NCBI RefSeq assembly: GCF_026210795.1 | Contig: NC_089433.1 | Coordinates: 3,844,001-3,908,000, forward strand | From: Rhizophagus irregularis | Lineage: Eukaryota | Length of the DNA: 64,000 bases | Direction: 5' to 3' | Part shown: positions 5,285-42,500 of the stretch, one piece after another | Position numbering within the stretch: the first letter of the stretch is position 1 | Layout of the letters: every line of letters begins with the position of its first letter | The notes under the pieces: generated by a model | The model's input: the letters and a program-made list of their open reading frames with translations, nothing else | What the model was told of the DNA's origin: nothing | Database searches by the model: none | Made by a program: the position numbers and the translations under genes

Positions 5285-5426
5285 CAGAAACTTCAAGATA
5301 GTAGCGATGGCTTAATGCGCAGTAACTGCGTTATAAATACATAGTGACCACATTATGTAATCGTAAAGAAATTACATATATGTAGTTACTGTGCATTAAG
5401 CCATCGCTACGATCTTGAAGTTTCTG
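5285..5426. mobile_element. Tc1/mariner-type MITE (~45-bp TIRs, TA target duplication)
   Basis: Starts CAGAAACTTCAAGATAGTAGCGATGGCTTAATGCGCAGTAACT, ends AGTTACTGTGCATTAAGCCATCGCTACGATCTTGAAGTTTCTG, with TA on both sides. Confidence 0.7.
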
Positions 5427-5924
5427 TAAAGTTACCGGTTCTATTATAGGATCGTAGCAAAAGCTAGTACCAACAGTTAACTAAAAATACTGCATGGAAA
5501 CATACTTACTGTTCCTTTGCACCTTCACCACCATATCCTTACCTTTAATTTATAGTAGTATTTAAATATAAAATACTAGCGCTAGTATTTGATTCATATA
5601 TCTTTTCTATAGATATTTCTATAAAGATCATTTTAATTTTAATAAAAAAAATGTGTAAATACTTAAATTCGAGTCAATTAGTTGGATATACAGTATTTGT
5701 TAGATAAAATCGTTCACGGAAGGAAATTCATACAAAATTTAAAATCATTCATAGTTTCATAAAAAAAGTATACCAATAATTTGAAAAATTCGGTTGAGTT
5801 ATTTGAAATCATGAAAAAAGTTAATTTTTTTGATGCGAGCTTCAAGGTAATTCTATAGTAATTTCAATTTCTTTTTATTTATAATACTAAAATAATAAAT
5901 AATATAAACATAAAAATACAACAA

Positions 5925-8929: not shown

Positions 8930-9255
8930 CGTTTTCCTTCTTTCCTTTGCCTTTCCCTTATTCCCTCGCTCTTTCCGTTCTCTCCTTCCTTTCCTTTTCC
9001 CTAATTCTCTCGCTTTTTCCCTTTTCCTTTTCTTATTTATTCACTCTTTTCATTTCCCCTCTCTTTACCTTTCCTCTCTTATCCCCTCATTCTTTCCTTT
9101 CCCTTTCCCTTGTTCTTTCGCTCATTTTCCTTTCCCTCTCTTATTCCATTCTTTCCTTTTCCTTCTCTTTCCTATCTTTTACTTTCCTCTTTACCTTCCC
9201 TTCCCTTTCCTTACTCTTTCCCTTTCCCTCTCTCACTTTTCCTTCCCTCTTCCCC
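8930..9255. repeat. Polypyrimidine low-complexity tract (TTCCCT/TTTCC-like)
   Basis: Almost entirely C/T on the + strand; produces spurious F/L/P/S-rich ORFs. Confidence 0.75.
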
Positions 9256-9927
9256 TGATCAATATTGCTGCACCTCAACGTGATGATCAGGTGACAACAA
9301 GTTTTTTAAAAGACTTGGCTAAGTCAGAAACAAATGTAACGGTTTGTCTATTTTTAACTATAAATTAAACTAAAATTTTTATTTGATTTCTCATTTATAT
9401 GATTATTCAATTTTAATTTTTGCAAATGTATTAATAATATGATCCAAAGATTATTACAGTAATTAGTAAATCTAAAATTTATTGAGATTAAATTCAAATA
9501 AGACAAATGCGTATTGTATACAAAAATTATTAATTAAACATAACTTAATTATAGCTTTTACAATTGCAAAATTAAAATAATAATGTTAAAACCAATTTTA
9601 ATCAGTTAAGTCGGCATTACTACTATAAAAGAATAATCACATTAGATTTATTTTAAAAAATCCCTGCCCATAAACATCTTTTTTTGGATTCAGAGAATCG
9701 TTGAAGCAAATTTGAGAAAATATTTCGTAGAAATGTAATGATTGTATAATCTACAGTAGCACTAGACTAGTATTTTAACTTTTAATATTTACATTATTCG
9801 CAATCAAGTCTTAACATTATTATTGTAAAACTTTATTCATCAAAAAGATCATACACAAAATAAAATAAATAAAATAAAATAAAATAATTTGCTCGTTTAT
9901 CTATTTAACTAACATAAAAATACCGTA

Positions 9928-11417
9928 CTATCTCTTTATAACCTGAAATACTTCATAATCTTCTATTTGAAATTTACCTTCAGCTCTTATCATTTTTTCA
10001 TAATGTACCCATCCACAGTAACTTGTATCATAATTTGTTGATTCATTAGAAGCACGTATGATAATATCTCTGCCAAAAAATGGACCATCGGCTCGACAAT
10101 AACAAACTGCAAATTCTGCTGTGTCTCGTACGTTACTAAAAATTGCATCTTTAATATTTTTATTTTTAAAAGAAAAAATAAAACTATCTTTAGTTTTACC
10201 CTTATTATCAGAAGTTTCCCAAGTTATAGGGTTGTATCCACCAATAATCTCTTCTGATCCTTTTACTTTGATAAAAGTAACAGTATTAGGTATACCATTA
10301 CATAATTGATGAAATTTTTTTGGAGTAAATCCATCTCGACTTCCTCTTAATAATAATTCAAATTTGTATGGTAAATATAATTCTCTTAAATGATCAAATT
10401 TTCCATTAATAATGATAACTGTTTTATCAATCCATCTTAAAACAGCTGAAACAAGAACTAGATTAACAATTTCTGAATCAATAATTCTCTCAATTTTAAT
10501 ACTTCTAGGAAGTAAAATATTGTCGGCTGGTTCAGTATCAGGATCCACATGAGAATTTAATAAATCTTCATAAACTTGGTGGTTTAAGAGCCTTTTATAA
10601 GGATGAACTTTTTGTAAAAATTCTTTGGATGATAAACTAAAAAATCTAATCCAAGGTAAACAATGTTGTAAGGTATTTTTCATTGTTTTAAAATCAGCAT
10701 CTGATAAGTCATTAAGATCAAATGTAGGATTTTGTGCAAGACCCCATTTTAATACATGATCCCAGACCTCAATCTCTTTCATTTGCAAATCATCTCTTTT
10801 AATGAGTTGAACTAAAGATTTTTCAGGAAGTAAAGTGAAATCAAGTGATTTAAATACTTTCTCTGGAGATTTTGCCGTTAAATCTCTGCAAAATTGTCGA
10901 ATTTCCGATAAAGAATCGTATTGAAAACTTGTTCGATGAATGAATTCAAAATGTTGTTCCATCCATTCAGATTCATTTTCAACCAAGTATTTTTGTAAAT
11001 AACCAATTAATTCTTGAAGATCTAGTTCATCTGCTGCCAATAAAATTTGAAAAATTTGGGAAGCATTTTGTTCATTCAATGAAAGAATACCACCATAAAT
11101 ATACCTATATTAAAATATTAATTATCTCAATAAATATTAGAGGTATTAATTTCATGTTATACTTATTGTATATTAAGTTTACCTTAAAATAATTTGAAAA
11201 ACTTTTGGTGATATATTCGGTAACTTGATATTGGTTAAAACATTGTCTTTATTCTGCTTCTTATTAGAATCCAAAGCTCGTTGTAAGTATAGAGAACGAG
11301 AAAACAAAATACTCTATTAGAATCTTTGCCAACTTCAACTGTAATATCGTAATATTCATTATTATCCAATAATTCAATATAATTTTGACTTAGTGTTGAA
11401 AGAAATTGTGTCGACAT
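9928..11417 (-). pseudogene. BTB/POZ-BACK-TLDc protein, copy 3, exon-1 frameshift
   Basis: Exons 11417-11183 and 11104-9928. Relative to copy 1, a 22-nt deletion near 11315 removes VKIFRSH and shifts the frame; exon 2 is fully open. Confidence 0.8.
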
Positions 11418-13449
11418 ATTATAAAAAAATCGAAATTAATATGGTAAAAAAAAAAAATTGTGTAAATTTATAAGTTTTTCTCTTACTTATTTTAGTAATG
11501 CAATCAATACATATTTGGTTAAATTAAAGATCAATGTAAATTCTTTCCAAATAAAAATTATTCCGTCATCAGAAAAATCAAATGCAACTTTATCACGTGA
11601 ATGATTTGCAACTTTTTTTTTTGAAATTTTAATATCTCAACAGATGGAATCTAAAAAAAATTGTCTGACGTTTGTCTCCGCATAAATAATTTGAATTGTG
11701 TAACTTGAAATCCCATGCCATAATTATAATTAAATCCCGTGACATGCCTCATTTATGGTGCAAAACTATTTGATCGTGTGGGTTAATGAAAAATTACCTT
11801 AATCGGATTTTTTTTTTTTTGATTATTAATTTTTAATTTTTTTTTGTAAAATTTTTCTCACTCATTTCCCGTTTATGTTTAATTTTTTTTTCCCAAACTG
11901 AAGTTTTTTTATTATTACTATTAAATAATTTAAATAATCCTATTGTTTCTGTCTTTTCAGACCGATTTTTTTTATATTATTTTTTTCGATCTTTTTTTTT
12001 AGACCGTATTGTTATTTTTCTTAAAAATATTTTTTTTTCACTTTTTTTGTACTTTTTTTTCAGAATTTTTTTCGGTACTTATTTTTTTTCGGATTCCTTT
12101 TTTTCGGTATTTCCCTTTTTTAATCCGATTTCTTTCTTTTATTTTCTTTTCTCCCCAAATTTTTTTGATTTTTTTTTCTTTTTCTTTCAATTTTTTTTAT
12201 TATTAACGTTAAATAAAGAAATAAAATATTATATTAAATATATTTACAAAATTATTATTTTTTTAATGTAACGTAGGAAAATTGACCGACGTTGATAAAA
12301 AAGATTATTAAGATATTTTCAATTAAATTGAATACTGGATAAATAGTTTGATTTTAAATTCATAAAATCAAAAAAAAAATTGATATTTTTACAATATTTT
12401 ATAATTAATTAATTGAAGAAACTGTTAAGTTAATAATAAATTATTATAACCAAATCCATATCCGAAATTCTCTAAATAATCACCAAGATTTTTGAATAAA
12501 GATTTTAAATTCAAATGGTTTAGTTAAATTAATAATTTATCGAATAAAATAAATATCAAAAGAATAATAATAAATGAAATGAACAGATTCTAATACATTT
12601 AATTGTTCAAATATTTTTTTTCTAGGTTGGTTATAAGTTTTAAGATTGACGTAATATAAATAATAAGAAATAATTATAAAATTTATAATTAATTAATAAA
12701 AATATTTGTAATATTGTTATAATATTAAAGTTTTTTTCGAAAATACTTCTAAAAAAAATAATCAATTTTTATTGATAATTATTTTTTCACAATTCCTTAA
12801 TTAATCCGAATTTCATCATTTTATACTCAAACGTCAAATCATAATATAAATAGCTAGTACATTATTGTAAATATAATTTAATACACATTATTTTATTATT
12901 TTCTGTTAACTAATTATTATCCATATTAAATTCCTAATTATAAACAAAACACTACTGTAACCATCTTTAATTTACTTAGTATTACATTATGATACTAAAA
13001 ATTTTTCTATTTAAACAAACTCATTGGTCCCGATGCGAAGCAACGGTTACTGTTATTTCTTTTCTGAGTTTATTGTTAAAGTCGCCTAAACTTTTTCTTT
13101 TCAAATAGAGAGCTGATCAAAATCAGTCATTATCCTGAAAACAATGTTATGTAAGAGACTAACGATAAATGCGTTAATAATTGTACGAGATTTGTAAAAA
13201 CATCGGCTTAATGATAAGAATTTTTTCGTAGTTGAGCAAGTTTGGAGAAATGTAATGGTTATATAACCTACAGAAGTTTCAGTATACTTTAATTTTTTTT
13301 TAAATAAACTTACGAAATTAGAGAAATTATTTTTCGCAATTTAGTAACATTATTATAGTAAAATTTATTCGTGAAAAGGTGATGCACCAAATAAAAAACA
13401 ATTCAATAATTTACTCATTTATCTTATTATCTAACACAAAAATACCGTA

Positions 13450-14964
13450 CTATCTCTTTATAATCTGAAATACTTCATAATCTTCTATTTGAAATTTATT
13501 TCCAGTATCTCTTATCATTTTTTCATAATGCAACTTTCCACAGTAACTTGTATCATAATTTGTAGATTCATTAGAAGCACGTATGATAATATCTCTACCA
13601 AAAAATGGACCATCGGCTCGACAATAACAAACTGCAAAATCAGCACCTGCATCTCGTACGTTACTAAAAATTGCATCTTTAATATTTTTATTTTTAAAAG
13701 AAAAAATAAAACTATCTTTAGTTTTACCCTTACAATAATCAATGGATTTCCATATTATAGGGTTGTATCCACCAATAATCTCTTCTGTTTCCTTTACTTT
13801 AATAAAAGTAACAGTATTAGGTTTACCATCACATAATTCATGAAATTTTTTTGGAGTAAATCCATCTCGACTTCCTCTTAATAATAATTCAAATTTGTAT
13901 GGTAAATATAATTCTCTTAAATGATCAAATTTTCCATTAATAATAATAATCGTTTTATTAATCCATCTTGAAACAGAAGAAACAAGAACTAAATCAACAA
14001 ATTTTGAATCAATAATTCTCTCAACTTTAATATTTCTAGGAGGTAAAATATTATCAGTTGGTTCAATATCAGGATCCATATGAGAATTTAATATATCTTC
14101 ATAGAGTTGATTATTTAAAAGCTTTTCATATGGACGAACTTTTAAGAATTCTTTGGATGATAAACTAAAAAATCTAATCCAAGGTAAACAATGTTCTAAG
14201 GTATTTTTCATTTTTTTGAAATCATCATCAGTCCAAGTTTTGGGATCTGGAATTAGGGTTTGGTTTTTTGCAAGTCCCCATTTTAATACGTTCTCCCAAA
14301 CTTCAACTTCTTTCATTTGTAAATCGTCTCTTTTAATAAGTGATATTAAAGATTTTTCAGAAAGTGAAGTAAAATTAAATGATTCAAGTATTTTTTCGGG
14401 AGATTGAGCCATTAATTTTGTACAAAATTCTTGAAGGTCTAATAAATTATTAGATGTTGAACTAATTTGTTGAGTAAATCCAAAATTTTGTATTATCCAC
14501 TCTGACTTATTTTCAATTAAAAATTTTTGTAAATAATTAACTAGTTCTTGAAGATGAAGTTCATCTGCGGCGGCCAAAATTTTAAGAAAATCTGAAGTGT
14601 CATGCTCATTCAACGAAAGAATACCACCATAAATATATCTATATTACAAAAATTTAATAAATATTAGAAATAATATATTATCCACCATAATTCATATTAA
14701 ATTTACTTACTCTATAATAATTTGAAATATTTCTGATGAAATATTTGGTAATTTAATATGAGTTAATACGTTATCGTTGTTCTTTTTATTAGAAGCTAAA
14801 ATTCGTCGTAAATATGGAGAACGGTAACACAAAATATTCATATGAGCACGAAATATTTTTACGTTAGGATCCTCACCAACTTCAATTGTAATATCATAAT
14901 ATTCATCGTCCTTCAATAATTCAATATAATTTTGACTTAATTTCGAAAAAAATTGAGTAGTCAT
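13450..14964 (-). CDS. BTB/POZ-BACK-TLDc protein, copy 4 (intact, 480 aa)
   Basis: join(14964-14711, 14638-13450); same motifs and same intron position as copy 2. Confidence 0.9.
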
Positions 14965-19961: not shown

Positions 19962-22900
19962 CTAAACTGTTGCTAAATTTTTTAATTCTTTTTTTTCTTG
20001 ATCTAATTCTAATTTCAATTCATTCAAATTTTTTCTCAATGAATTTATATCTTCTGCCATCATATTAGAATTTAATTGAATTTTGATTCCTTCCTGAGAA
20101 TTAGTAGCAAATTTAAAAATTTTGTAATTATCAAGATTAAAAGAATTCAACTTAAGAATATTTTCAATTATGAGGCTATTTTCCAACTCTTTATTTTTCT
20201 GAACAATTTTCTTTAAGGAATAATAATTTTTATTCAACTCTAACAATCCATCATTATATTTTACAAGAATATTTTGAAATTCTTTAGTGTATTTATCAGT
20301 CAATTTAGAGATTTTCATATCTCCAACAGAACCAATAGTATTTCTTTCCTTATTAATAGAACTTTCTAGATGATTACAGCAATTTTGTAGTTTTTCAATA
20401 GCTTCTTCTCGTAAAGTTAGGAAATTATCCTTAACTTTCAGAAAATCATTGGTTTGATTGAGAACCTGTTTTTTTCTATTGGCATTATAAGAAGCTGATG
20501 TTTTTGATAATTCTTGTTGGAGTTCATTCAACTCCTTTTGTTTAGCATCTTTTTCTTTGTGGATTTCCTTAGTATTTTTTCCACTAGTTAATTTATTTAA
20601 TAATTCCTCTTCAATTTCACTTAATTCTTTTCTTTTATCTTGTAGCTTTTTAATACGCTCTTGATCAAGGTTAATTAGTCTTTGTTCTAATTCATTTACT
20701 TTATCTTGTTTAATCTGTAAAGCTTGAATTAATTGCATTTTGATTTGTTCTTCAATGAACAATTTTTGTTCCAATTGATCAATTTCTTTTTCTAACTTGA
20801 CTTTCAATTTTATAGTAAGCTTTTGATCCTGTGAAAGACCACTCACCATATTTTGCAACCTGATTTTTTCTTGTTCTATTTGTTCATAATTAACTTGAAA
20901 CTGATTTAATCTATTTTCCAATTGCTCTTTTTGTTCAATTAAGCTTTCTTTGTGAGATTTTAATTCTTGAATAATAGCTTCTGTTTGAGCTAATTTTTCT
21001 TGCAATTTAGTTATTTCTCGCTTTAACTGGCTGATTTGATCTTGAACTTGCTGGTTAGTTAGTTTATTTTGTTCCAACTGTTCAGTTAAATTGGTTAAAT
21101 TGCCAGCTAAGTTTTGCTTTTCATTTTGCAGATCAATAATTTGGGTTTGTAAAATATTTTCTTTTTCTGCAAATTCTTTAATTTGTTCAGCTAAGTTAAG
21201 CCTCAGATTTTGATTATTTTGTTCAAATTTAAAATTCCTTTGTTGTGAATCAAAGAAATCATTTTCTAACTTAATATTTTCTTCTTCTATTTGAATTAAT
21301 TGATTTTTAAATTGAGAATTTCTTTGTTGTAAATTAACTAACTCATTTTGAGAACTTTGATAATAAGTTTCAGCAATCTTTTCTAATTTAAGATTTTCTT
21401 CTTCTGTTTGAATTAATTGATTTTTAAATTGATTTTGCTGAGATTTTGATTCTTGAATAATGGTTTCTGTTCGGACCAATTTATCTTGCAAATTATTTTT
21501 TTCTTGATTTAACTGACTGATTTGTTTTAACTGTTCAGTCAACTTACTATCTAAAACTTGCTTTTCATTTTGCAGATTTGCAATTTGGGTATTTTGTAGA
21601 GTTGAGTTTTGCTGTAAATTAACTAATTCCATTTGAATATTTTGTAATTCATTTTGAGAACTTTGATATTTTTGTTTTAATTTAAGATATCCTTGTAAAC
21701 CTTCTAGAATTCCATTTAATTCTTCACTAGTAAAATCAAGTAAATGACTTGTATAGCATGCTTTTGGATGAGATTTTACAATAAGGTTATTATGTTTAAT
21801 TGGTGCATTTATAAATTCCATAATATTGCTTTTTAATTCTTCATTAATATCTTCAATTTCCTTATTATAAGGAAGAAAAATCCAATTTTTAATAATATTT
21901 AAAACTTCTTTAGAAGATGGCCTTTTTAATGGATTTTCATCCCAGCATTTTTTCATTAAATCTATATAGCATTGCGGAGTATTTTCAATAATTTCAGGAC
22001 GTTCACCTTTACAAATACTTAAAGCAAGTTGAAGATCATGTGCTTTATCATTAAATGGTAGAATTTCAGATGCAAATTCCCACATAATTATAGAAAAACT
22101 ATATATATCACTAGCTTGAGTATAAGGTTGACCTCTTAAAATTTCAGGTGCTATAAATGGCAAAACTCCATAGATATTATTTTCTTTTAAAAAAGATTTT
22201 GCAAGTTGATATAATCCTAAGTAATCACTAATGAAAATTCCATATATATTTTCTCCATACTTGTTACATAAAATATTACCATTATGAAAGTTATAATGAA
22301 TAAGATCTTTTTTATGAATATCATTAAGACCTCTAATAATTTGATATAAACAAAATAATTTTTGTTCCCAATTTTTTGTTATTTCTGTTAAACATCTTTT
22401 TAAACTGCCCTTATTTGTATACTCCATTAATAATACATAATTCAAAGTATCTGGATCTTTTGTAAATCCATATATTCTAATAATTTTATATGAATTTTCA
22501 ATAATTTTCCACTACAAATAATAATATTTAGTTAATTAGTATAGATAAATTATAATATTTTAAAAAAAATAATACTTAATCATACTTCATTTAAAAATTC
22601 ATTTAAATTTTCATCTGAATTATTAAGATAATCAAAATATTTAAGAATTACTTCAGTATTTTTATATGTAGCTTTATATAAAGTACCAAATCCTCCTTTA
22701 TCAAAATATTCAATATTTTCAAATTTATCATAAGGAATCCATTTTAATTGATTTTTAGAAATAAATTGATTAACAATTTTACTTCCACTAGTACCAAATC
22801 TTTAAATATAAAAATGAAATTATATTAAAAATTAAAATTTAAATAAAATTTACAATTATAAATATTAAACAATATTAATTATACTTACTCTAAATAAAAT

Positions 22901-25900
22901 TATAAGATTTTAATATAATAAATAATTAATTAATTAGATTATAAATAAATAGTACAGTATATAATAACTTATAACTTACCAACTAAAAGATTTAATTATT
23001 ATGAGTAAATAATATATAATTATAATAAACTAAATATAAAAAATATAGGATTATTATAATTAAAAAATGCAATACTTACAGGCTAAAATATTTTGGGTGA
23101 TTTTTTAAATAATTTAATTAGTTTAAATTATATGTAAATATTATATAAATATAATAAATTACTTACATTCATAAATATCTGAATAATTTTTTAAATAAAG
23201 AATTTAGTTAGTTTAAATTATATGTAAATATTATATAAATATAATAGAATTAAATAAATAACTTATAACTTACCAACTAAAAGAAATTATAGAATAATTT
23301 TTTAAATAAAGAATTTAGTTAGTTTAAATTATATGTAAATATTATATAAATATAATAGAATTAAATAAATAACATACTCCCTATATTATTAAATAAATAA
23401 TTTTTTTAAATAAAGAATTTAGTTAGTTTAAATTATATGTAAATATTATATAAATATAATAAATTACTTACGAACTAAAATATTTGAAATAAAGAATTTA
23501 GTTGGTTTAAATTATATGCAAATATTATATAAATATAATAAATTACTTACGTTCTAAATATTTGAAATAAAGAATTTAGTTAGTTTAAATTATATGTAAA
23601 TATTATATAAATATAAAATAAATTACTTACGTTCTAAAATATTTGAATAATTTTTAAATAAAGAATTTAGTTAGTTTAAATTATATGTAAATATTATATA
23701 AATATAATAGAATTAAATAAATAACATACTCCCTATATTATTATTATATAAATAATTTTTTAAATAAAGAATTTAGTTAGTTTAAATTAAATGTAAATAT
23801 TATATAAATATAATAAATTACTTACGAACTAAAATATTTGAATAATTTTTTAAATAAAGAATTTAGTTAGTTTAAATTATATAAATATAATAGAATTAAA
23901 TAAATAACTTATAACTTACCAACTAAAAGAAATTATAGAATAATTTTTTAAATAAAGAATTTAGTTAGTTTAAATTATATGTAAATATTATATAAATATA
24001 ATAAATTACTTACGTTCTAAAATATTTGAATAATTTTTTAAATAAAGAATTTAGTTAGTTTAAATTATTTGTAAATATTATATAAATATAATAGAATTAA
24101 ATAAATAACATACTCTCTATATTATTAAATAAATAATTTTTCAAATAAAGAATTTAGTTAGTTTAAATTATATGTAAATATTATATAAATATAATAAATT
24201 ACTTACGTTCTAAAATATTTGAATCATTTTTTAAATAAAGAATTTAGTTAGTTTAAATTATATGTAAATATTATATAAATATAATAAATTACTTACGTTC
24301 TAAAATATTTGAATCATTTTTTAAATAAAGAATTTAGTTAGTTTAAATTATATGTAAATATTATATAAATATAATAAATTACTTACGTTCTAAAATATTT
24401 GAATAATTTTTTAAATAAAGAATTTAGTTAGTTTAAATTATATGTAAATAATATTACATAAATATAATAAATTACTTACGTTCTAAAATATTTGAATAAT
24501 TTTTTAAATAAAGAATTTAGTTAGTTTAAATTATATATATAAATATAATAAATTACTTACGTTCTAAAATATTTGAATAATTTTTTAAATAAAGAATTTA
24601 GTTAGTTTAAATTATATGTAAATATTATATAAATATAATAAATTACTTACGTTCTAAAATATTTGAATAATTTTTTAAATAAAGAATTTAGTTAGTTTAA
24701 ATTATTTGTAAATATTATATAAATATAATAGAATTAAATAAATAACATACTCTCTATATTATTAAATAAATAATTTTTCAAATAAAGAATTTAGTTAGTT
24801 TAAATTATATGTAAATATTATATAAATATAATAAATTACTTACGTTCTAAAATATTTGAATCATTTTTTAAATAAAGAATTTAGTTAGTTTAAATTATAT
24901 GTAAATATTATATAAATATAATAAATTACTTACGTTCTAAAATATTTGAATAATTTTTTAAATAAAGAATTTAGTTAGTTTAAATTATATGTAAATATTA
25001 TATAAATATAATAGAATTAAATAAATAACATACTCCCTATATTATTATTAAATAAATAATTTTTTAAATAAAGAATTTAGTTAGTTTAAATTATATGTAA
25101 AATATTATATAAATATAATAGAATTAAATAAATAACATACTCCCTATATTATTAAATAAATAATTTTTTTAAATAAAGAATTTAGTTAGTTTAAATTATA
25201 TGTAAATATTATATAAATATAATAAATTACTTACGTTCTAAAATATTTGAATAATTTTTTAAATAAAGAATTTAGTTAATTTAAATTATATGTAAATATT
25301 ATATAAATATAAAATAAATTACTTACGTTCTAAAATATTTGAATAATTTTTAAATAAAAAATTTAGTTAGTTTAAATTATATGTAAATATTATATAAATA
25401 TAATAGAATTAAATAAATAACATACTCCCTATATTATTAAATAAATAATTTTTTAAATAAAGAATTTAGTTAGTTTAAATTATATGTAAATATAATATAT
25501 TAAACAAATAACTTACACCCTGTAGTATTATTAATTAATAATAATTATAAAGTAAAGTAATTATAATCAATTAGATAAAATATTATAATTGTATATAAAA
25601 ATTAAGTATATACAGTAACTTACAATCTAATTATTTAAATAAATAATATTATTAGTTTAAATTATAAATACTCTTAAATTAATATAAAATTAAATACTTA
25701 CTTTCTATAATATTAGTAATTATTAAAGAATTATATCAATAGAAAATTTAGTTATTTAAAATATCATGTAAAATACAATAAAAAAAAAATAGCTATTAAC
25801 TTACTAACTATAATAATATTAATAATAAAATAAATTATTTGGTTATATAAAATAATAGAAGTAAGTAATTTAATTATCATTCCGATTATAAGATAACCTA

Positions 25901-26046
25901 TTACTTACGAGCTAATATACGAGCTAATATAGTAAAATAATTTTTAGAAATAGTTTAAAAAATTTAAATTATATGTTTATAATTTACAAGCTAATTTTCT
26001 TACCTTCATCTTCTTTATCTTTCTCAATTTTTGAAACTAGTTTCAT
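19962..26046 (-). CDS. Tyrosine-kinase-like (pseudo)kinase with microexon-encoded N-terminal segment and long C-terminal coiled coil (predicted 970 aa)
   Basis: Exon 26046-26004 (MKLVSKIEKDKEDE+G), 33 microexons (25911-22889), exon 22799-22586 (FGTSG..WIPYDKF..KGGFGTLYKA..VILK), exon 22511-19962 (IYGFTKDP..MEY..IHYNFHNGNIL..PFIAPE..DIYSF..CW..RP, then Q/E/K/N/L heptads). The kinase exons are secure; the microexon chain is predicted. Confidence 0.8.
23170..25500 (-). repeat. Tandem array of ~80-107-bp units, each one intron plus one 3-nt microexon
   Basis: Minus-strand unit: GTAAGT or GTATGT...TTTAAACTAACTAAATTCTTTATTT...TAG|NNN|GT; about 24 near-identical copies. Confidence 0.9.
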
Positions 26047-26311
26047 TATATTGCAAATTTGGTTTGGAAAAATTTTAGAGCAATTTCAATTTGTATTAGA
26101 TATCTATATTCATGTTATATGCTTTTACCTTTATCGTTACTTTGAGACTTTCTGAACAAGAAATTGTTAGTCCAGGACATACTTTTACAATAAGATTATC
26201 AACAAGTACAAGAGATGTTAAAATTAATTGAAATTCTTTTTATTCGAGCATATATAGTTGTTTGTGTAGCACCAATTTTCAGCCAGATATATTTAATTAG
26301 GCGTTAGAGCG

Positions 26312-27421
26312 TAGTGCTTCGACCCGGATGAAAACCGTCATCCGGATTACACAAAAAAAAAATCCAGATTATATCCGGGTCGATCCGGATTTTAAATCCG
26401 GATCAGATAATCCGGATAGAAACCGGAAACCGGATTGGATTTTTTTTAATTGCGAGCTACGGAGATGCACAATAGCTCATTAGAATCGTCTCGTTGAGAC
26501 GGATCGAATGGCGCTAATTTCATCCTTATACAATCACTGGATGCCGAAATATTCAACAAAACATCAAAAATCGGCATTTTATATATTGCAAATTACGATA
26601 CTGCGCCATTTTATGTTTGTCGAATATCTCGGCAACCAGTGATCGTATAAAGATGCACAATAGCTCATTCGAATAGTTGCATCAAGACAAATCTAATGAG
26701 TTTTAGATCATCTTTCTACGTCCACTGGATGTCGAGATACTCAATAAAATGTCAAAATCTGCATTTTTCATTTCGCGATACTGTGCCATTTTACGGTTTT
26801 CTGAATATCTCAGTATAGAGTGATTGTAGAAAGATGAACTTAGTACCATTCGATTTGTTGCAACGAGACGATTCTAATGAGATATTATGCATCTCTGTAC
26901 GACCACTAGATGCCGAGATATTTAGCAAAATGTAAATGGCGCAGTATCACAAAAATGAGAAGTGCCGATGTTTGATGTTTTGTTGAATATCTCGACATCC
27001 AGTGGTCATAGAAAGATGATCTGAAGCTCATTAGATTCGTCTTGATGTAACTATTCGGATGAGCTATTGTACATCTCTATATGATAACTGGTTGCCGAGA
27101 TATTCGGCAAAACGTGAAATGGCGCAGTATCGTAAAATAAAAAATGCCGATTTTGACATTTGGTTGAATATCTCGGCATCCAGTGATTGTGTAAGGATGA
27201 AATTAGCGCCATTTGACCCGTCTCAATGAGACGATTTGAATGAGCTTTTATGCATCTCTGTAATCTGCATTTTTAAAAAAATCCAATCCGGATTCCGGTT
27301 TCTATCCGGGTTATGAGATACGGATTCACAATTTGGATCGATCCGGATATAATCCGGATATCCGAAAAAAAAAAAAAATTCGGATCAATCCGGATTGATC
27401 CGGATACGGGTCGAAGCACAA
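26312..27421. mobile_element. Non-autonomous hAT-type element with a long internal palindrome
   Basis: 8-bp TSD TTAGAGCG (26304-26311, 27422-27429); TIR TAGTGCTTCGACCCG / CGGGTCGAAGCACAA; many subterminal ATCCGGAT motifs; ~26410-27310 is an imperfect inverted repeat. Confidence 0.9.
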
Positions 27422-29400
27422 TTAGAGCGTCCGAAATGTTGATGGTATCACTAAATTATAATAATACAACTTTCTTGTTGATCATTAGCTATAAGAGTTA
27501 AGTACTTGTCTTTTTTTCACTTTTACATTTCTTTTGAGAGTATCAAGCGCCAGTACAATAGTGCTCTTTGCAAAATGTAAATTTTTTTATGAAGAAGGTG
27601 GGCATATGAAAAAAGTCTGATATTTTCGACCTTTGAAGGTGGAGGCGTGATGACGACGGCAACGTGGCGTAAGAAATATATATAGTGACACTTGTGACAT
27701 CCAATGGGTGGGTGTGACAAATAGATTTTCCACTACACCTACTTGCAGATCCTGAGAGATCCAAGGGAAAAGAGTTTTTATTGTAAGTTGCAACCACGAG
27801 ACTTTTCCGGAAGGATGGGCTATATTATTTATAGTTTTTAGTTTCTGTATTTTTTTTATTTTTTTTATAGTTATTAGATTTTTTTTTTGTTTTTTATCGA
27901 TACAGGCATATAATTATAGTTTAGTCTATCATCATATCCATTCGTACCGACCTTATTAAAATTTAATTATGTTTTTTTAAAGGTCAAATTACCTTATACT
28001 AATTACGTTATCATAATATAATAATGTCTTTATACAGTTCGTAGTATTGTCTTATTACTTGTTACAAAAAAAGAGCAAAGCGTTTAAAATGAGGAAACTT
28101 GGTTCGTCCAAAAAAATTTAACCATAACCTGAATTATTTATATTGTGAATTTTCGGAAAACAAAAAGAAAATTTAAAATATACTTTTTAAATGATTAATA
28201 TTTTCTTTCAATAAGTACTTTTATTAAAACGTCATACCTTGTGTGACGTAAAATTATTTGTGAAAAATCAGAAATGTCCTTTAAAGTAAGTTAGAATTTT
28301 TTTATTTTGCTTCTTTGATTTTCCTATAATAAGGTGCTTATTTTCTTATTTTAAGTAAAAAGATATGGATAATTGATAAAACAAAATTATTTTTTAATGT
28401 CAAATTCTTTTATTAATAGTAAAGATAATGGGAACGAAATCCAATGAGAAGCACATTTAGTTTATATACAGTACTTCAAAATAGCACTTTAAAAAAAAAT
28501 CTTAAAAATAATTTTTTTTTTTATTGTCCGGAGCGAAGCGAAGGACAATATATGTCTACGCACTATGAAAAAAAAATCGATCACGTGAGTTTCTCTGTCC
28601 GCCACGTGATCGTCACCCAATGAAATCGGCAAAATTTTAGTTTTCGTTCCGGACTTACAACGGTTCCCGTTTCCTAGTTGATATAAACTTATCTATATTG
28701 AGTTATTATTCCTTATTACTATCTTCTTTTTATAGTCTATTATGTTTTTTGTTTCAATTTCTTGTGCTTCTCTTTAAAATGGTTTGTGAAATTTTTCTGG
28801 TAAATCTTCGTTGATCAAATTTGCTGTTGTCGGTAAAGTTTCAACTTTCGACTTATTCATTATGTACATTATTAGCAGAAGAAACAAATCTTAGATTGAG
28901 AAATATTTTTTCATTTAATTATTTAATTGATTTCTTGCATAAATGGGGGACTTTCTTTTTTCTTGTTAATATAAATTTTAATAGATGTTACCTTGAGGAG
29001 TAACTGGACAAGTAGTTTCGTTAGACTAAGAAAATTGGAGAGGGAAATAAAGTTATTCATTGGAAGCAGCCTATTTAAATAGATGAACTTGAGAAGTAAG
29101 ACCGGTCAAATAAAATTTAGATCTTTGTAACATAAAATTTTTTAAAAAAATGTAAAGACCGGCTTTTATTTTATTTCGTAGAGAATATGGGAACTCTTTA
29201 TTTAATTCTGTTTACAATTACAGTATTAATAATAAATAAAATTAAATGAAAAAAAGAAAAAATGGATTAATTAGATTGATTGTAATTCGTGTGATTCGCA
29301 GGATCATTTCTTCTAATGTTTTCCTTATTTCGTGACTAAATATTTATCAGAGAAGATGAAAAATATTTAAAGAAAACTATTAAATAAAATATTAACAAAT

Positions 29401-29881
29401 TCATATATTTTTGAAATATCTTACTTGTCGAGTTTTGGTCGTATGCGACATTTTTCTTTTGGACATTTTTCTTTTTTCTTTCTGATCGTTATCTTTATGA
29501 TTTCTTGGTGTTGCGACTGTTGCGTGTTGATGATTACCATTATCTGAAATTCTACTATTGTTTTTTTCTTTTTCTATATCTTTTTTTCGATTTCTTATTT
29601 CAATATCTTCTAATAACTTGCCTATTTGACATTTTATTGATCCACTCCCCAGTCGAAATATTTTCATCTCTATTTTCATTATCTTTATTATTTATTTTAA
29701 TTTCAATTTGTCGAGGACTTATTTTTGGATTAATATAAATGTGTGTACCAGTCCCTTTCTCAATGGGTTTTAGATTACGTCCTTTACGACCAATCAATTT
29801 ACCAATTTCAACATGGTCGGAAATTTCAATAATGGTCAAAACAGTTGAATATCTGATGGAATTTTGCATTTTTGTTTCCAT
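29401..29881 (-). pseudogene. KH-domain protein, frameshifted copy
   Basis: IGKLIGRKGRNLKPIEKGTG (KH GxxG loop); 5-nt deletion (GCAAT) near 29633 relative to the + strand copy. Confidence 0.8.
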
Positions 29882-30299
29882 TTTTATGAAGAATTTAAAG
29901 ATGATATATTGTTGTATTTTTTATTATTATTAAAAATAAAGTAGGAAAAAATATGTATGATTTTTTTTTTTGATGAATTTTTTTGAAAAAGCAAACTCAA
30001 AAAGGGGAAGTATTTATATAATTTAGCAGTTTTGCAAATTTATAAACAAAAACACATCGTAAAAAACATTTTATTAATATAAAACCAATAAAATTTTTAT
30101 ATTGTTATTATTTTTAACAAAACCATTTTTTTTTAATTAACAAAGACAATTCATGAAAAAAAAATCTATTTTTAAATCATCTTTTATTATAAAAGGTAAT
30201 TGTTCTCTTTTCACAAAAAAGTGATAGCTTGTCTGGATCACCGGGTCTTGCGCCACAAATTGTGTTCACAACAATTTAAAGGACGATAGATGATTAGAT

Positions 30300-31196: not shown

Positions 31197-32644
31197 GACG
31201 ATAGATGATTAGATGATGGTACAATATACGCTCACATCAACATTGGTGCATTTGGTGGTAATAACTCTCAGATAGGTAAAACAAAACTATAAAATTCATA
31301 CAACTTTCATACATTTAATTATGAAAGAATTTTGTAGTATTTATTATTATTTATTTTTATTATATAGATAGATACTATTATAAGGAATTTTTTAGAATGA
31401 TGATATGATACCTAATTTTATTTATCGAAATTAATTAGAACATATATTGTGTATTACCTATTAAGAATTTACAGTAGTTTTTATAATATTAAAAATCTAT
31501 CAGATTATGTCTTTGTTATCTAATTATTATGAAGAGCGTCACTATTTCATTATCTAGTACAAAAAAATTGACTAACAAGTAATAGCGAAATAATTATAAT
31601 ACGTAAAATACGAATCAATTTTAGCTTGTTAAATTTCTATGAATAAAAATATAAATTATTTAGAAATAATAATTATTGTAACTAAAAATCCAGAATTAGA
31701 AAAATAATAAATTCCTTTTTTTAAAAAAAAATTACTAAGGGCCATGCATCGCCGAGATGGAGAACCGAGATTGAACTTAAAATTAATGCAGTTAATTTCT
31801 AATTTAAAAATAAAATTAATGAAAGGTAGATAATTTTATAAGATATTTATGAAAGAATAGAAAAAAAAAGATAAGAATAAATGTCTTTTTGAAAGTAACG
31901 AAAATAAATTACAAGACTAATTAATTCTTGTAAACAAATATTTATAATAATTGAACATATTGAACACTTCAATTATTAATTTTTTATAGTAGTCGATAGT
32001 TAATAATGCAGTATTATTAATTTTTTATATAATAGTCGATAGTCAATAACGCAGACGTAGTACGAGATAGGGAGAATTTCTTTTTTTTTTTTGATAATTG
32101 ATAACAAAAGCGTTTGTTAATGACACAATTTGTGGCGCAAGACATGATGATCCGGACAAAAGTATCCAGCTATCCCTTTTTTGTGATAGTCTTGACCATC
32201 AGTTATATTATCGCACGAAAATCTTTATAACAATGACGGTTTTTTTTTCATGCTTAAAAGTGAATGATTTACCTTTTATAATAAAAACATAAACATGTTT
32301 TAAAAATAGTTATTGAGAAAATCATCGTTTTTTCATGATTCGTCATCAAAACCATTGTCTTTGTTAATTAAAAAAAATGGCTTTGTTAAAGATAAAAATA
32401 AATAAAAAACTTTTGTTGGTTTTATGTTAATGGAATATGTTTTTGTTGCAATTTGCGATGTATTTTTTTTTTGCTTGTAATTTGCAATAATTGCTAAATT
32501 ATAAATACTCTCCATTTTTTTTAGTTCTCATTTTTCAAAAAAAAAAAAAAACATTAAAAAAATCATATATTTCTCTTCCTCTTTTTTTTTTTTAAAAAAA
32601 AAAAAAATACATAATAATATATCATCTTTAAATTCTTCATAAAT

Positions 32645-33130
32645 ATGGAAAAGCAAATGCAAGATTCCATCAGATACTCAACTGTTTTGACCATTATTGA
32701 AATTTCCGACCATGTTGAAATTGGTAAATTGATTGGTCGTAATGGACGTAACCTAAAACCCATTGAGAAAGGGACTGGTACCCACATTTACATTAATACA
32801 AAAAAAAGTCCTCAACAAATTGAAATTAAAATAAATAATAAAGATAATGAAGATAGAGATGAAAATATTTCGACTGGGGAGAGGATCAATAAAGCAATAT
32901 GTCAAATAGACAAGTTATTAGAAGATATTGAAATAAGAAATCGAAGAAAAGATATAGAAAAAGAGAAAAACAATAGTAGAATTTCAGATAATGGTAATCA
33001 TCAACACGCAACAGTCGCAACACCAAGAAATCATAAAGATAACGATCAGAAGGAAAAAAGAAAAAGGTCCAAAAGAAAAATGCCGAATACGACCAAAACA
33101 CGACAAGTAAGATATTTCAAAAATATATAA
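32645..33130 (+). CDS. Single KH-domain protein with basic C-terminal tail (161 aa)
   Basis: IEISDHVEIGKLIGRNGRNLKPIEKGTGTHIYI (KH motif); open ATG-to-stop frame; K/R-rich tail. Confidence 0.75.
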   Translation: MEKQMQDSIRYSTVLTIIEISDHVEIGKLIGRNGRNLKPIEKGTGTHIYINTKKSPQQIEIKINNKDNEDRDENISTGERINKAICQIDKLLEDIEIRNRRKDIEKEKNNSRISDNGNHQHATVATPRNHKDNDQKEKRKRSKRKMPNTTKTRQVRYFKNI

Positions 33131-36040: not shown

Positions 36041-39019
36041 TTTAAATATGGGAAATAAAATTAAATAAATGAGTTACATAAAATACATTAATATATTACC
36101 CAAAATTAATTTGTATTGTTCTTTTTTATTTACTGAAAAAAAAAGTTGCACCTTCGGCAGCAATCCAATTAGCTACCGTTTCATCTAATCTTCTAATGGG
36201 ACGTGAATTAGTTTATTGTTAGCGCGTCCTTTTCGTGTAAAATAATATACTGTAATTTGTTAATAATTATTGTAGATATTGGTAATTAATCATCGGATCA
36301 TAAAAAATTCTTAATGTGGAAATAAAAATTTTTCGTAAGTAAATTATTTTACTATTATATGTTAATTTCAGTGCGTAAAAATGGTTTGAATATGGTTGAA
36401 ATTTATAATATACAATACCCACCTTTTCGCACTCTTTTTCTCAATTTAAAACATTATGAATGATGAAAAATGTCTTAAATATTTCGAATGAAAGTCAAAG
36501 TATTGGTCCCTCGTTGATTTTGACGGGTGGGCATTAAATAACATCGAACATTATCAAATGAATATTGGTCATCGTTTCTTTTACAGGCACTTAAGTGAAA
36601 TTTTACTAAAGTCAAATTCAAAACGAAAAATAAAGAAAGCAAGAGAGCTTATTAGATCAAAAAAAGTAAGTAATTTTATTGGAGTGCAAGTTTTTCCATT
36701 GGGTCTACTGAGTACTGATTCTTCAAAAGGAATCAGTTATGTACCTTCCCAAATTAAATTTACACTGGGCCAAACACGCAATTAAATTAAGATTGGGTTG
36801 GTGGGTGGGAGGGCTAAGTATTTCTTGAATATTTAAATTGTATTTTATGATTATATTTTTTTTAAAGAAATCAACTTATTGGCAGGAATTATAGTGAATA
36901 ATATCCTTTTTTTTCTCTCTGCTAAAGCTTTGGTATCAGATTCAGTACTTTTTACAAATCTTGGCTCACAATTTGAAAGTATCATCTCGGACTATATGGC
37001 TAAAGATAAACCAACTGAGATTCCAACCACATTATTCCATTCAAATGGAAGCGGATTAAAAAATCAGACTACAATGTTAAAACGTGGATCTTTCATTTTT
37101 TTTCAGATGCTTTAACATCAATTGAAGGAAAGTTTTATTTAGAATTACATAATTTTGGTTTTATTTGTATTAACAATCAAATTTTACATCAAAATCTACC
37201 AAGGAAATGCCCTGGTCTTCTACATCATCATCATCGTCATCACCACATGAGTCACAAAATCTGCAATCCATAAAAAAATTCAACAGCAACAATCACCACA
37301 CCTGTACTAGGAAAACATGACATTACTACAAAAAAATTTCAGCCAACTAAATTAACAAAATTATCAGATATTGCATCAAATGCACTCGTGGTTAGCAGGC
37401 TCGCGTGAAAAGCGGGTATCAGGCTATTTAATAATAAGTGAATTACATTAATAAATTTATATTCTCAAAATTTTATATTTCAGAGCATAGCGATCATTGT
37501 TTCGACAAATTGGACAACATAATCGCAACACATTTATGCTTGTTCACGATATTGATCATGTGGACGATCCTCACAAAGTTATGAACGTAATAAAGATATA
37601 TTCGAGACAATGGGAATTTATCGTTTATGATTTGATCAAAATCTGAAACAGATAACTAGGGTCAAGTGGGATACGCCCCTAGAGCCTAGACCCTTTCTAG
37701 CAAAGAATTACCTGAATTGAGCAAACCATTAATCATGGCTTAAGCCAGCGTCACTAAAAGTCCTATTTACGAAAAATAAATTTGTTTATTTACACATCAG
37801 ATATTAGAGACAAATTGGTGAAAGCTTTCGCTCGTGAGCTACACGTGTTCATGAACGGGTAAAATTTTACGAGGAATAGTATTCATTTCCGAATCAGAGG
37901 AATTATCCATGTTATAATTGTGGCGATTCAGTGGATCATGAAACCAGAAATAATTTACATGTGCACATGTGCACGGACTCATTTGTTCGTATACTTCAAA
38001 TTTTAAACTCAAGAACGATGCAGTTATAAAAATTCAAATGATAGTTCTTCCTTGGATAATATATAAGCTGAACATTAATGGAGAAACTCGAACAACATTG
38101 TATAACTTATATGTTAATAAGTATTAAACAGAATAAAATCAGCATGAAACAAATTTGATAGACTTCGTCTATATTGTTACATGACAAAAAAAAAACGAGG
38201 ATAATTTTTTCCTATAATAATTACGAAACATCCCTAATTACTGAAGTACGTAAATTAAAGACATATCTATGGCACAATGCTAATAATCAGAATCAACTTC
38301 AGATCATACAAGCACGAAATTTCATTTTAAATGGATAAGTGTAGATAATATTAATAGTATTGATGTATCGTATCATACCATCTTAAAAAGACAACGCTTC
38401 GCTATTACTTTGATCTTGGGGAAGCATTAACGAAATGGCATGAACTTTATATAGCATTGAAATATGGGATTTGGCAGCTCAATCTCTAGTTGCTGATGTA
38501 GCTTTTCAAAGATGTTTCGGGAGCAGTTCCTCGAAAAAGAATCGAAAGAACTCGAAAGGTTCGGCAATAAGGGTAGGACTATGCTAGGACGAGTTAAAAC
38601 TTTTTTACTATCGTCATACGGGTTGTCTAGAGGTGATATTAGATATGTAATTGCTAAAATGTTTCGTAGATAATTATTTTCGCTGTGTCAAGTTCATTCT
38701 CGAGCACCAAAGATTCTAAAGTCATTGAAATAAGTAGTTGGAACTTGGAAGCGATAAAGAAATAGTGGCTTCAAGACACTCAAAAAGTTGGTAATGATAT
38801 TATTCATTCACTCATACACATCCAGATTTGCAAAATGCAGTTTACGCGTAATAAGTTTATATTCAAAGAATATAAGCGCTGCTAAATTTTTCAAATATGT
38901 ACATAATAATAATATCTAATTAAAATTAATCTCCCAAAGTTATTTATTAAGCTTGAATTATGATTAATTTATAGGTATTACAAAAATTATTAAGTATTAA
39001 GCTATTCGTTCATTATTCG

Positions 39020-39535
39020 CTCACTTTTTTCGCTCACTTTTCGTTTACTTTTTCACTCACTTCTCCACTCGCTTCTCCACTCACTTCATCCACTTTTTCA
39101 CTCGCTTCTCCACTCACTTCATCTACTTTTTCACTCGCTTCTCCACTCACTTCATCCACTTTTTCACTCGCTTTTCCACTCACTTCATCCACTTTTTCAC
39201 TCGCTTCTTCACTCGCTTCTCCACTGAGTCCACTCACTTCTTCACTCACTTTTTCGCTCACTTTTTCGCTAACTTCTTCATTCACTTTTTCGCTCGCTTC
39301 CTCGCTAACTTCTTCATTCACTTTTTCGCTCGCTTCCTCGCTAACTTCTTCACTCACTTTTTCGATCAATTCTTCGTTAACTTTTTCACTCACTTTTTCG
39401 ATCACTTCTTCGCTAACTTCTTCACTCGCTTTTTCACTTAATTCTTCGCTAACTTCTCCACTCACTTTTTCGTTTACTTCTTCGCTCACTTCTTCGTTAA
39501 CCTCTTTACTCACTTTTTCGCTCAATTCTTCGCTT
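39020..39535 (-). repeat. Coding minisatellite (12-nt/4-aa units SEEV/SEKV/SGEA) at the TSC1 C-terminus
   Basis: Repeated CACTCACTT/CGCTTCT units; translation VSEEVSEKVNEEASEK... Confidence 0.85.
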
Positions 39536-42500
39536 ATTTTATTTTCGATCTTAGGTATCTTAGGTGGAGTGAGTGATTCAATTTTAGCCAGTAATTCTAT
39601 AATACGTGACTAATAACAAAAAAAAAAATACGAATATTTATGTTAAGTAAATTATGTAAAAAATATGTATGAAAAAATCACACACACTAAATATATACCT
39701 GTAATTCTTCGTTATGCTTTTTAACTTCATCAAATTGAGTTTCCAACTTTTTGAATTCTTTATCCCTCTTATCTCTTTCAAATGACCATATCATCATCTA
39801 AAATTATTATCCGATTAATAGAATTAATTATGAATTAAAGAATATTTCATATTTGAAAGGAAAATCATTATACTTGTTTTTCCAACGCTTTTTCAGGTCT
39901 TTCTATGTTTTTTGTAGAATTCTCCAATTGAATTTTTAGATCATCAATAACAAGAGATTGCGAACTAATAAATAAGACAAACAATCAATATATATCATCC
40001 CAATTTATGTGTCTCCACTGCTTCTCTATTTTATAAACTTGTAGAAATTCACGAAAAAAATTCCTTACCTAATGGTGGAACTTAATTGTTGAATCTCATG
40101 TTCTCCAGATTTCAACATCATTTCCATTTTATGCCAATTCCCTACTAAAGTCTCCATTAATCTTTTTTGTTCTTGAAATTTTATCGTATCAGCTTCCCTG
40201 TAATAAAAAAAATAAATAAATGAATAAATATGTTATTTCTAATTATTTTGGATCGTTAATATCGTTAATTAAAAAAAAAAAATATTAAAATATTATGAAT
40301 TAATCCCTTCTTTATTTACCATAACATAAGTTGTTTTGTCAATTGATCAATGGTGTGTTCGTACTCTGTTAATTTTTGAAGTTGGGGCTCATGTAATTTG
40401 ATTTGATTCTCAAGTGAGAAACATCTGAAGATAAAGTATTATATAGTTATCATATAATTTTCGTTGCCATTACAAGTAAATACAATACATTATTTACTTA
40501 CTTCGCACTTAACACCTCGATTTGTTTATTTTGCGCGTCTATTACAAGCTAAAAAAAAAAGATGAAATAGTAAAATCATTAATTTAAATCATTCAAAAAC
40601 CCGTAAATATATTTTCAAATACGTTAAAGATTCTTCTTACCTTAGATTCGCTTAATTCTTGTTCTAATTTATCTAAAACACTCTTCCATTCTTTTTTCTC
40701 GTTTTTATATTGTTTCAATTTATTATTTAATTCATTCTCCCATTGAACGTGTTTCTTTTTTGTATTAGCAGTTTCAGTTTTTTGTCTATCAAACGCGGCT
40801 TGAGTTTGTGATAATTGTGATTTTAATATTTTACATGTATTATATAAATTTTGTCTTTCAGCTTCAACTGTACTATCTAATATATGATCACGATGTAATC
40901 TACCAATATGTTGAAGATGTTGTTGTTTAAGATAAAGTTCAAAATTTAATTCATTCCTCAAAAGCATTATTTCACGTTGTAAATATGCCACACTCGCTTG
41001 CGTGTTTGTAGTGTTTGTAGTCGGTGGTGATTCATTTTCAGGTGGCGAAGTAGGATGATTAACAGTTAGAAAATTTGAATATGATATTATCCTGGATGCC
41101 TGAAATAAAATTATTTTTTTTTAAAAATTTTTTTTTAATAATTTTTGTAAAAATAATTTTAATTTTAAGATATAAACTAAAGTAAAATGATATAGACTTA
41201 AGTAAAATCCACTTACCCAAGGATCATCCCCTACAACAATATCAGCACCACTTTTAAGAGCCTGATGAACATCCATAATTTCATGTATAGAAATTGCTTG
41301 TGAAGGACGTCTTGCTTTTTGAGTTTTCTTTTCAATTATTTTAGTATCAGCTTCTTCTAACACTATTTTAGTTAGATTTTCCAATTCATTTGAATTATTT
41401 GAATTAGAAGAAGCATTCTCCATATCATAACTAACGCATTCGGCAACTACATCAGCAGGTTCAAGTTTCATCCATCTTGATGTATCTGAAAGTTCTTTCT
41501 CTGAATCGCTCATTATAAGATTTGGGTGAAGTGTATGAATTCGTAATAATGACTAAAATAAAATTTTTTTTTTAAAAAAAAAAATAATAAAATGGAAAAG
41601 AAATAAAGTTTAAAGTCTTTAATTTATTACCATACTTCTCGCTCTTATAATATCATCATCAAATTTTTCAATTAAAGGAACATTATTCATCTCTTTAATC
41701 CAACCAGAAGGATCTTTTAAAAATTTTACAGTATTACATGGAAACATTCCATACAAAAATGTAAAAAGTTGCTTACAACTTGGTGGACTTGATGGTGCAT
41801 TATCAAAAGTCGAATCTGTAAAAAAAAAAATCAAAAAAAAAAATTTTTTTTTAAAAGATATTAAATAGAAAATAAATATGCATATTTTAAATTAAAGTTT
41901 ACCACATCGATTCCAATCTACAACATTCAACTTTTCTGATGTTTTTTGATCATCATCATCATCGTCGTCGTCGTCATCACTTTCCACAATCTCATCAGGA
42001 AAATCAACGGGTCTCGAAATATGTTTATCCCAACATATAATCCTGCTAAATATAATATACAGTCCAGGAAGATAAGTAGTAACAGATATACATATATGAG
42101 GTAATAACATAATTAAAGTAGTTAGTGAAAGGGAAATCAAAGTTGTGGATGTATCCCGCTATAATTTTTAAATATACAAATAAAAATTATTAAAAATCAA
42201 CTAAAAAAAACACTAAAAATTCAAAAGAACGGTACCTGAAGTGAGGTTAATAAAGAATCAAGAAGTGGAGTCTCTAATATTTGATGAATATGTAAATTCT
42301 GGAAAAAAATAAATAAATAAAGGATTAAAATATAAAAGTAATAAAAAATAAATAAAATAAAATAAAAAATAAAATATAAACCTGTTTTCTTATAAATTCA
42401 CCAAATAATGTTAAGACTTGTAGCCTATAAGTACTTTGAACAAAATATGAATTTAATAAAATAAAAAATTCCTAACATAAAAAAATATATATATATATAT

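Follow-up and report, generated by a model that had tools for sequence, protein, structure and literature searches.

The 5′ part of a tyrosine-kinase-like gene on the minus strand of a 64-kb stretch of Rhizophagus irregularis DNA (hereafter the window, meaning the whole stretch analysed) is an array of micro-cassettes, 31 of three bases and one of a single base, bounded by splice signals and mostly embedded in introns that are nearly identical, and the original prediction of such an array was correct in this respect. We consider it probable that this is a coding array, read mostly in genomic order and reshuffled and expanded by unequal crossover in an intron core shared by its units; the intron-plus-three-base cassettes would then be real exons, most of them spliced in the order of the genome to yield a short N-terminal peptide. 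The stretch that holds the array, upstream of the kinase frame, has 10% GC (20-35% in the window outside the array), and Tandem Repeats Finder calls it a 90-base satellite. The other genes of the window are of the BTB-BACK-TLDc, KH, IBR, and Zn2Cys6 types. Four tandem BTB-BACK-TLDc-type genes, one of them checked in Pfam, occupy 2943-14643 on the minus strand, two similar KH-domain frames (29415-29920 and 32618-33130) have opposite orientations, and a 12-base tandem repeat at 39005-39609 has an open minus-strand frame for a repeat peptide rich in Glu, Ser, Val, and Lys. What looked like a one-base exon at 14711 was discarded, as a reading of the frames and pattern matches there points to an ordinary donor within a BTB-BACK-TLDc gene.

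Layout of the array and of related loci

With a strict unit pattern (YAG, 0-9 bases, and GTAAGT or GTATGT), the 32 units are found on the minus strand between 25911 and 22889 at a spacing of 75-104 bases, save for one gap of 191, and the same pattern has 16 scattered matches elsewhere in the window on both strands, four of them of three bases. A looser three-base pattern matched 32 times on the minus strand of 22800-26000, never on its plus strand, and 34 times on both strands of the other 60.8 kb. The limits first proposed for the array, 23170..25500, correspond to its core (Table 1), but the whole run is longer and covers 22889-25911. The 24 core triplets comprise 13 AAC, five GGA, two AGA, two TTG, and two TTC, and their flanks fall into the three types that had been recognized, including the GGA/AGA type with its GTATGT donor. 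Among the five older cassettes upstream of the core, the first four introns have a mutual score of 30.7 (29.3 when shuffled). Both splice signals are kept in 32 of 33 cassettes, the 33rd being the one without its AG acceptor, for which an alternative AG nine bases upstream would define a 12-base in-frame exon that the public gene model P0013 uses. Every cassette is in phase 1, in agreement with the split codons originally described; with all introns in this phase each codon is built from two neighbours, so that, on paper, a new order gives new residues. As had been noted, none of the four T-ending cassettes belongs to the core, and the bases after them are GG, GG, CC, and TT; one of the four, however, lacks an AG acceptor. 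The two AGA cassettes (24116-24114 and 24753-24751) have an internal AG two bases in; splicing there would reduce the exon to one base and change the frame.

Table 1. Features of the array and its surroundings in the window.
Feature	Position	Strand	Details
Last exon	19962..22511	-	849 codons: tyrosine-kinase-like domain, long coiled coil, C-terminal helical bundle
214-base exon, start of kinase N-lobe	22586..22799	-	Contig ends on 22799; joint to last exon
Predicted one-base exon (A)	22889..22889	-	Between TAG and GTAAGT; phase 1 to phase 2
Two further three-base cassettes	22980..23082	-	CCT 23082-23080, TTG 22982-22980; strict pattern
Cassette without its AG acceptor	23167..23178	-	Triplet 23169-23167, inside the 191-base gap; 33rd cassette
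Core tandem array	23170..25499	-	24 three-base cassettes (25428-23274), three flank types
Duplicated block, one copy	23938..24376		377 identical bases + 61 after one mismatch
Duplicated block, other copy	24575..25013		Offset 637 from first copy; 439-base block
Older three-base cassettes CTC, TTA, AAA, ATT, GGT	25517..25911	-	Strict pattern; diverged introns
Predicted first coding exon	26004..26046	-	ATG 26046, 14 codons + one base, donor GTAAGA; sets phase 1
Antisense copy of another transcript's middle, 83 bases	26147..26229	+	Holds doubtful ATG 26180

The introns are built of a donor flank tied to the upstream cassette, a common core of ~55 bases, and an acceptor flank tied to the downstream cassette, with a branch-point-like CTAAC or CTAAT ~42 bases upstream of the acceptor. 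Every triplet is accompanied by acceptor and donor flanks of its own, so that what moves is a triplet with both its flanks, and exchanges take place in the common core. It is within this core that unequal crossover likely multiplies the cassettes and changes their order in the DNA. The recent duplication of a block at a distance of 637 bp, already attributed to unequal crossover in the original prediction, is supported by two near-identical copies, in which 377 bases are exactly identical (23938-24314 and 24575-24951) and 61 more follow past one mismatch. Each of three marker motifs recurs at this distance of 637 bases, one of them with a third copy as well, and shorter exact copies, of 218 and 172 bases, are present at different offsets; the copy number of the cassettes is that of one assembly.

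Related kinase genes were read from 25 metagenome loci obtained in one scan, in ten of which the upstream exon was located by a W-I/V-P-Y motif; the other 15, having no locatable upstream exon, were excluded from the cassette counts. Three-base cassettes lie upstream of it in six of the ten (29 in L015, 11 in L012, five in L014, two in L019, and one each in L004 and L008), most of these six loci being cut by a contig end, and the layout is shown by these sequences to be a trait of the kinase family and not unique to the window copy. Pattern matches in these relatives number 50 in the sense orientation versus two on the other strand in 7,770 bases. In all six of these loci the next exon can be opened by an AG that gives phase 1, with other AGs nearby. 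Cassettes are absent upstream of the located exon in L002 (680 bases), L022 (215), and L023 (697), and L010 has 11 bases upstream only. The closest locus, L002 (91%), retains the one-base exon, but the 500 bases preceding that exon are unrelated AT-rich sequence free of cassettes, and L014 carries a stop in its kinase exon and has kept its cassettes. The cassette motifs matched viral contigs once, by chance (L026), and prokaryote genomes not at all.

In L015, 21 different triplets occur among 29 cassettes, which are interrupted by two longer gaps, one of them with ~440 bases of other sequence, and contain no in-order stop. Triplet length stays constant while the letters vary both in this locus, where position likeness is 0.27-0.40 in the cassettes versus 0.60 and 0.67 in the flanks, and in the core of the window array (0.38-0.46 versus 0.71 and 0.81), a contrast that supports the coding reading; in L012 the cassettes (0.31-0.49) are no more varied than the acceptor flank (0.45). 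Within arrays, introns score 124 in the window core versus 40 in L012 and 57 in L015. Between loci, array introns score 40-46, compared with 26-30 when shuffled and 29-33 against seven control introns, which suggests that array introns of different loci come from one old unit, although shared splice signals may contribute to the likeness. The phase-1 peptide predicted for the window gene is indeed rich in Gln, Lys, or Arg (20 of 31 residues), as first proposed for its N-terminus. The predicted chain of L015 has nine acidic and six aromatic residues out of 28 and no Gln, so that the Gln/Lys/Arg content is local. None of the 79 cassettes of the window, L012, L014, L015, and L019 starts with TA or TG; placed after the acceptor G, such a triplet would form a competing GTA or GTG donor, and splicing may thereby limit the usable triplets, although many codons commonly used end in TA or TG.

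The kinase-like gene and its reading frame

In a protein search, the long frame at 22511-19962 on the minus strand retrieved 208 relatives at E ≤ 0.001, and the named ones among the best 120 of these 208 are nearly all from Rhizophagus; against the R. irregularis public gene model P0013, the last exon is identical at 463 of 463 aligned residues. Pfam recognizes kinase families alone in the 849-residue exon (PF00069, 97 bits, and PF07714, 92.9 bits, both above the cut-off), with NACHT and ankyrin absent. The best matches of an 81% relative, P0001, are CTR1 (6e-25) and RIPK4 (7e-21), and by these similarities the kinase domain is nearest to TKL-group kinases. The catalytic-loop Asp has an established role in active protein kinases. 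Its position is occupied by Asn in the window kinase, the gene product being a probable pseudokinase, and by 40 Asp, 24 Asn, and one Gly in the relatives with the motif (65 of 120). The C-terminal 262 residues are predicted to form an all-helical hairpin and bundle (pLDDT 86.6), for which we considered cell-death or pore-forming helical folds such as HeLo, the MLKL four-helix bundle, and ClyA-type structures. Foldseek gave no match to this domain at E ≤ 0.001, the best Z in the fold comparison (11.7, to designed bundles) is within the generic range, all Atlas matches are below 0.8, and no relatives were found in prokaryote genomes. An endobacterial origin or a cell-death role of the C-terminal domain is accordingly unsupported, there being neither a prokaryote relative nor an informative fold match.

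The predicted first exon, starting at ATG 26046, continues in an open frame into the cassettes and the kinase, and is preferred as it needs no extra exon. A start at ATG 26180 (exon 26180-26129) was rejected, since it lies in a captured antisense fragment whose donor transcript differs at that base. The frame test was made with the ATG 26180 start, and ATG 26046 keeps the same phase: with the one-base exon, which the first reading had missed, the assembled frame is open over 980-984 residues in three of three variants, and without it a stop appears at residue 77-81 in all three. This predicted exon has a canonical AG and GT, is needed for the frame, and is kept in the homologue L002, where the 63 bases around it are identical and the next exon differs at 15 of 214 positions. 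It would restore the frame for the kinase exons. The cassettes supply ~32 of the ~970 residues of the predicted protein, the start of which is highly charged.

Public annotations treat these arrays in other ways. P0013 includes 17 of the 32 cassettes and reads them in a different frame. The proteins P0059, P0090, and P0091 start with stretches in which Gly, Met, Leu, Ile, and Asn abound and which, judged by their sequence, look like phase-0 readings of such arrays. Many of the listed relatives' proteins begin at or just before the kinase exon. Acidic Glu/Phe/Gly/Ser repeats precede the same kinase exon in P0142, P0183, P0184, and P0091, a second type of variable N-terminus. The phase-1 version of the chain was absent, as read by eye, among the proteins returned by homology searches, and protein searches with the 214-base exon (11, 26, and 378 matches, 150 of them listed) yielded no N-terminus from a transcript that carries the chain.

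Upstream of the predicted start, the 83-base fragment is found in one contig in each of four of four runs, with three differences and long unlike ends on both sides; its source transcript is well covered, and the fragment, which runs antisense to the kinase gene, has one open plus-strand frame. Some 260 bases before the predicted kinase start lies an element of ~1.1 kb (26304-27429) whose termini are 16-base inverted repeats (26314-26329 and 27404-27419); it is flanked by an 8-base direct repeat (26304 and 27422), contains internal repeats of 181 bases, and resembles a non-autonomous hAT-type transposon.

For transcript evidence we compared five of 24 runs (X1, X2, X5, X8, and X10), the RNA nature of which is our guess and is not on record. 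In the region 21900-23100, contigs of X1 and X8 (two of four runs) join 22511 to 22586 with CT..AC ends, so that spliced RNA of this gene or of a close paralog is present. Alignments of contigs from three of the four runs stop at acceptor 22799, where the contigs continue with letters unlike the intron: three letters in an X1 contig (one difference in 214) and in an X5 contig (none in 82), one letter in a second X5 contig, and 164 letters in a paralog contig of X2 (six differences in 94). No compared run has any depth at 22802-22842. The acceptor behind the array is therefore used in RNA, the extra letters being known by their count and not by their identity. None of the RNA-type contigs on 21900-23100 and 25505-26300 shows two cassettes of the window gene joined; in the comparison of 25505-26300 with X1, X2, X5, and X10, the first exon and cassettes 1-5 were uncovered, which is a blank and not evidence. 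One X1 contig, from a paralog or allele (window 25632-25664), has intron-like sequence, then ATT and GGC adjoining, then a donor, at a place where in the window an intron separates ATT from GGT, and represents either a six-base exon in the DNA or two cassettes spliced in partly processed RNA.

Stop codons, cassette order, and competing readings

The cassettes had been described as stop-proof. This stands among the five core types, none of which ends in T and whose 25 junctions give eight residues and no stop, but not as a design, and it fails beyond the core, since 15 of the 24 core cassettes would give TAA or TAG if joined to the preceding GGT cassette. In the window gene as a whole, 32 of 496 forward cassette pairs give a stop. 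The relatives are not stop-proof either, with stop-making forward pairs in L012 (7 of 55) and L015 (20 of 406), those of L014 being 0 of 10. T-ending cassettes make up 9 of 47 in the relatives, and at this rate the chance that three founder types all avoid a final T is ~0.53. In-order phase-1 stops, by contrast, were seen nowhere versus 4.35 expected on shuffling, with a pooled P of 0.002 that is weakened by the window cassettes being duplicates and not independent, and a P of 0.056 when the window is left out. These values suggest that selection acts on the genomic order of the cassettes, and their sequence fits an in-order reading better than free skipping. T-ending cassettes moved before those starting with AA, AG, or GA would make stops, and survivors of expansion would thus be filtered; with stop-making orders removed during duplication, the stop-free core is likely a by-product of this filter, a survivor effect.

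The cassettes could also be spliced in different subsets in different transcripts to produce many N-terminal peptides, a combinatorial alternative splicing that can coexist with in-order reading and that has a precedent in the nank genes of Tuber (in the accessible text of PMC4986451 and PMC10197012), although we hold it to be unlikely. Any three-base skip keeps the frame, junctions of core types are free of stops, and two donor strengths, GTAAGT and GTATGT, are available; yet passing over the first core cassette to any of 15 others creates a stop, none of the stop-making pairs of the relatives occurs in genomic order, and, 13 of the 24 core cassettes being the same triplet, skipping would mostly alter the length of a Gln run. 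Contigs in two studies stop three letters past 22799, as at a branch of an assembly graph, but paralogs with the same exon start also explain these ends, and the X2 paralog contig remains unbranched along its 164 letters.

Another possibility, quite improbable in our judgement, is that the layout is real in the family but this copy is drifting, neutrally or harmfully, through satellite-like growth of intron units mostly skipped by the spliceosome, with a decaying 5′ end. The replacement of the catalytic Asp by Asn, the loss of one cassette acceptor, the captured antisense fragment and the 1.1-kb inverted-repeat element 100-260 bases upstream of the predicted start, a core far more uniform than L012 or L015 (124 versus 40 and 57), and the lack of an array beside the one-base exon of L002 all speak for it. 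Against it, both signals persist in all cassettes but the 33rd, which has an in-frame substitute, the frame is open over ~980 codons with its downstream exons transcribed and spliced, and the clade often has Asn at the catalytic position (24 of the 65 proteins that contain the motif), so that this residue is no sign of decay. A phase-0 reading from ATG 26009, with the cassettes joined straight to the last exon to give a Gly/Asn-rich start, is stop-free in all five chains and is how P0013 was built, but it is very improbable, as it omits the 214-base N-lobe exon, which RNA-type contigs join to the last exon, and as the next exon is in phase 1 in six of six relatives.

If the coding array is read mostly in order, as we favour, the weakest step is the role of its product, which by analogy with Tuber nank would likely be a segment for interaction or recognition that changes fast and is carried by a probable pseudokinase. 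A broader proposal, which we advance tentatively and regard as rather doubtful, is that of a codon-by-codon peptide generator on an expanded kinase family of arbuscular mycorrhizal fungi, in which paralogous introns would serve as recombination handles for copying, deleting, and swapping split-codon exons within and between genes, and perhaps between nuclei, splicing would add isoforms, and annotation would have missed or misframed a hypervariable N-terminal recognition peptide.

Comparison with known systems

Tyrosine-kinase-like genes are expanded in R. irregularis according to the accessible text of PMC4219462. The array bears on them: if the cassettes are exons, the annotation of many such kinase genes lacks the true N-terminus or follows a wrong frame, and the array offers a PCR-sized locus for protein diversification between isolates and nuclei. 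Our search of the literature on arbuscular mycorrhizal fungi, which had subscription papers and supplements outside its scope, found no report of such arrays.

The nearest system is the nank (NACHT-ankyrin) family of Tuber melanosporum, with codon-sized mini-exons that are reported to be alternatively spliced (Iotti et al. 2012, as cited in the accessible text of PMC4986451 and PMC10197012). As in nank, many three-base exons, here predicted, occur in an expanded fungal gene family and are a proposed source of protein variety. Unlike nank, the Rhizophagus gene encodes a TKL-like (pseudo)kinase with a coiled coil and no NACHT or ankyrin, belongs to a glomeromycete, and has its array at the N-terminus, and the evidence for its array points to duplication at the DNA level, whereas the defining claim for nank is alternative splicing. 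As far as these sources describe the family, the array works like the codon-sized exons of Tuber nank but is not a nank member. The MEGs of Schistosoma mansoni, a variable family of secreted proteins with exons of 3-81 bases and introns of up to 5 kb (accessible text of PMC10526429), similarly combine runs of very short exons with a variable gene family, and the three-base size falls within their range; in contrast, the Rhizophagus cassettes are fixed at three bases, their introns measure 75-104 bases and are paralogous, and the array is the small front part of a kinase-like protein of ~970 residues. Exon shuffling in brown-algal NB-ARC-TPR genes and repeat shuffling in the sensor domains of fungal NLRs, both as presented in PMC10197012, share diversification by recombination among highly similar internal units, but in Rhizophagus the shuffled unit is a single codon and the recombining sequence is the intron.

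Single-nucleotide exons are described, in the portions of these papers available to us, from Arabidopsis (PMC4674806), Fusarium CYP621A (PMC12940212), and Coprinopsis cinerea, with 13 cases (PMC12230235). The one predicted here resembles them in that a single base flanked by AG and GT is required to maintain the frame, and differs in that it is predicted to close a long three-base array as a phase adapter. The long-read annotation of C. cinerea, in the same part of PMC12230235, counts 27 three-base exons in 26 genes in total; compared with these 27 in a whole species, ~32 consecutive predicted exons of ≤3 bases in one gene make the Rhizophagus array an extreme splicing substrate.
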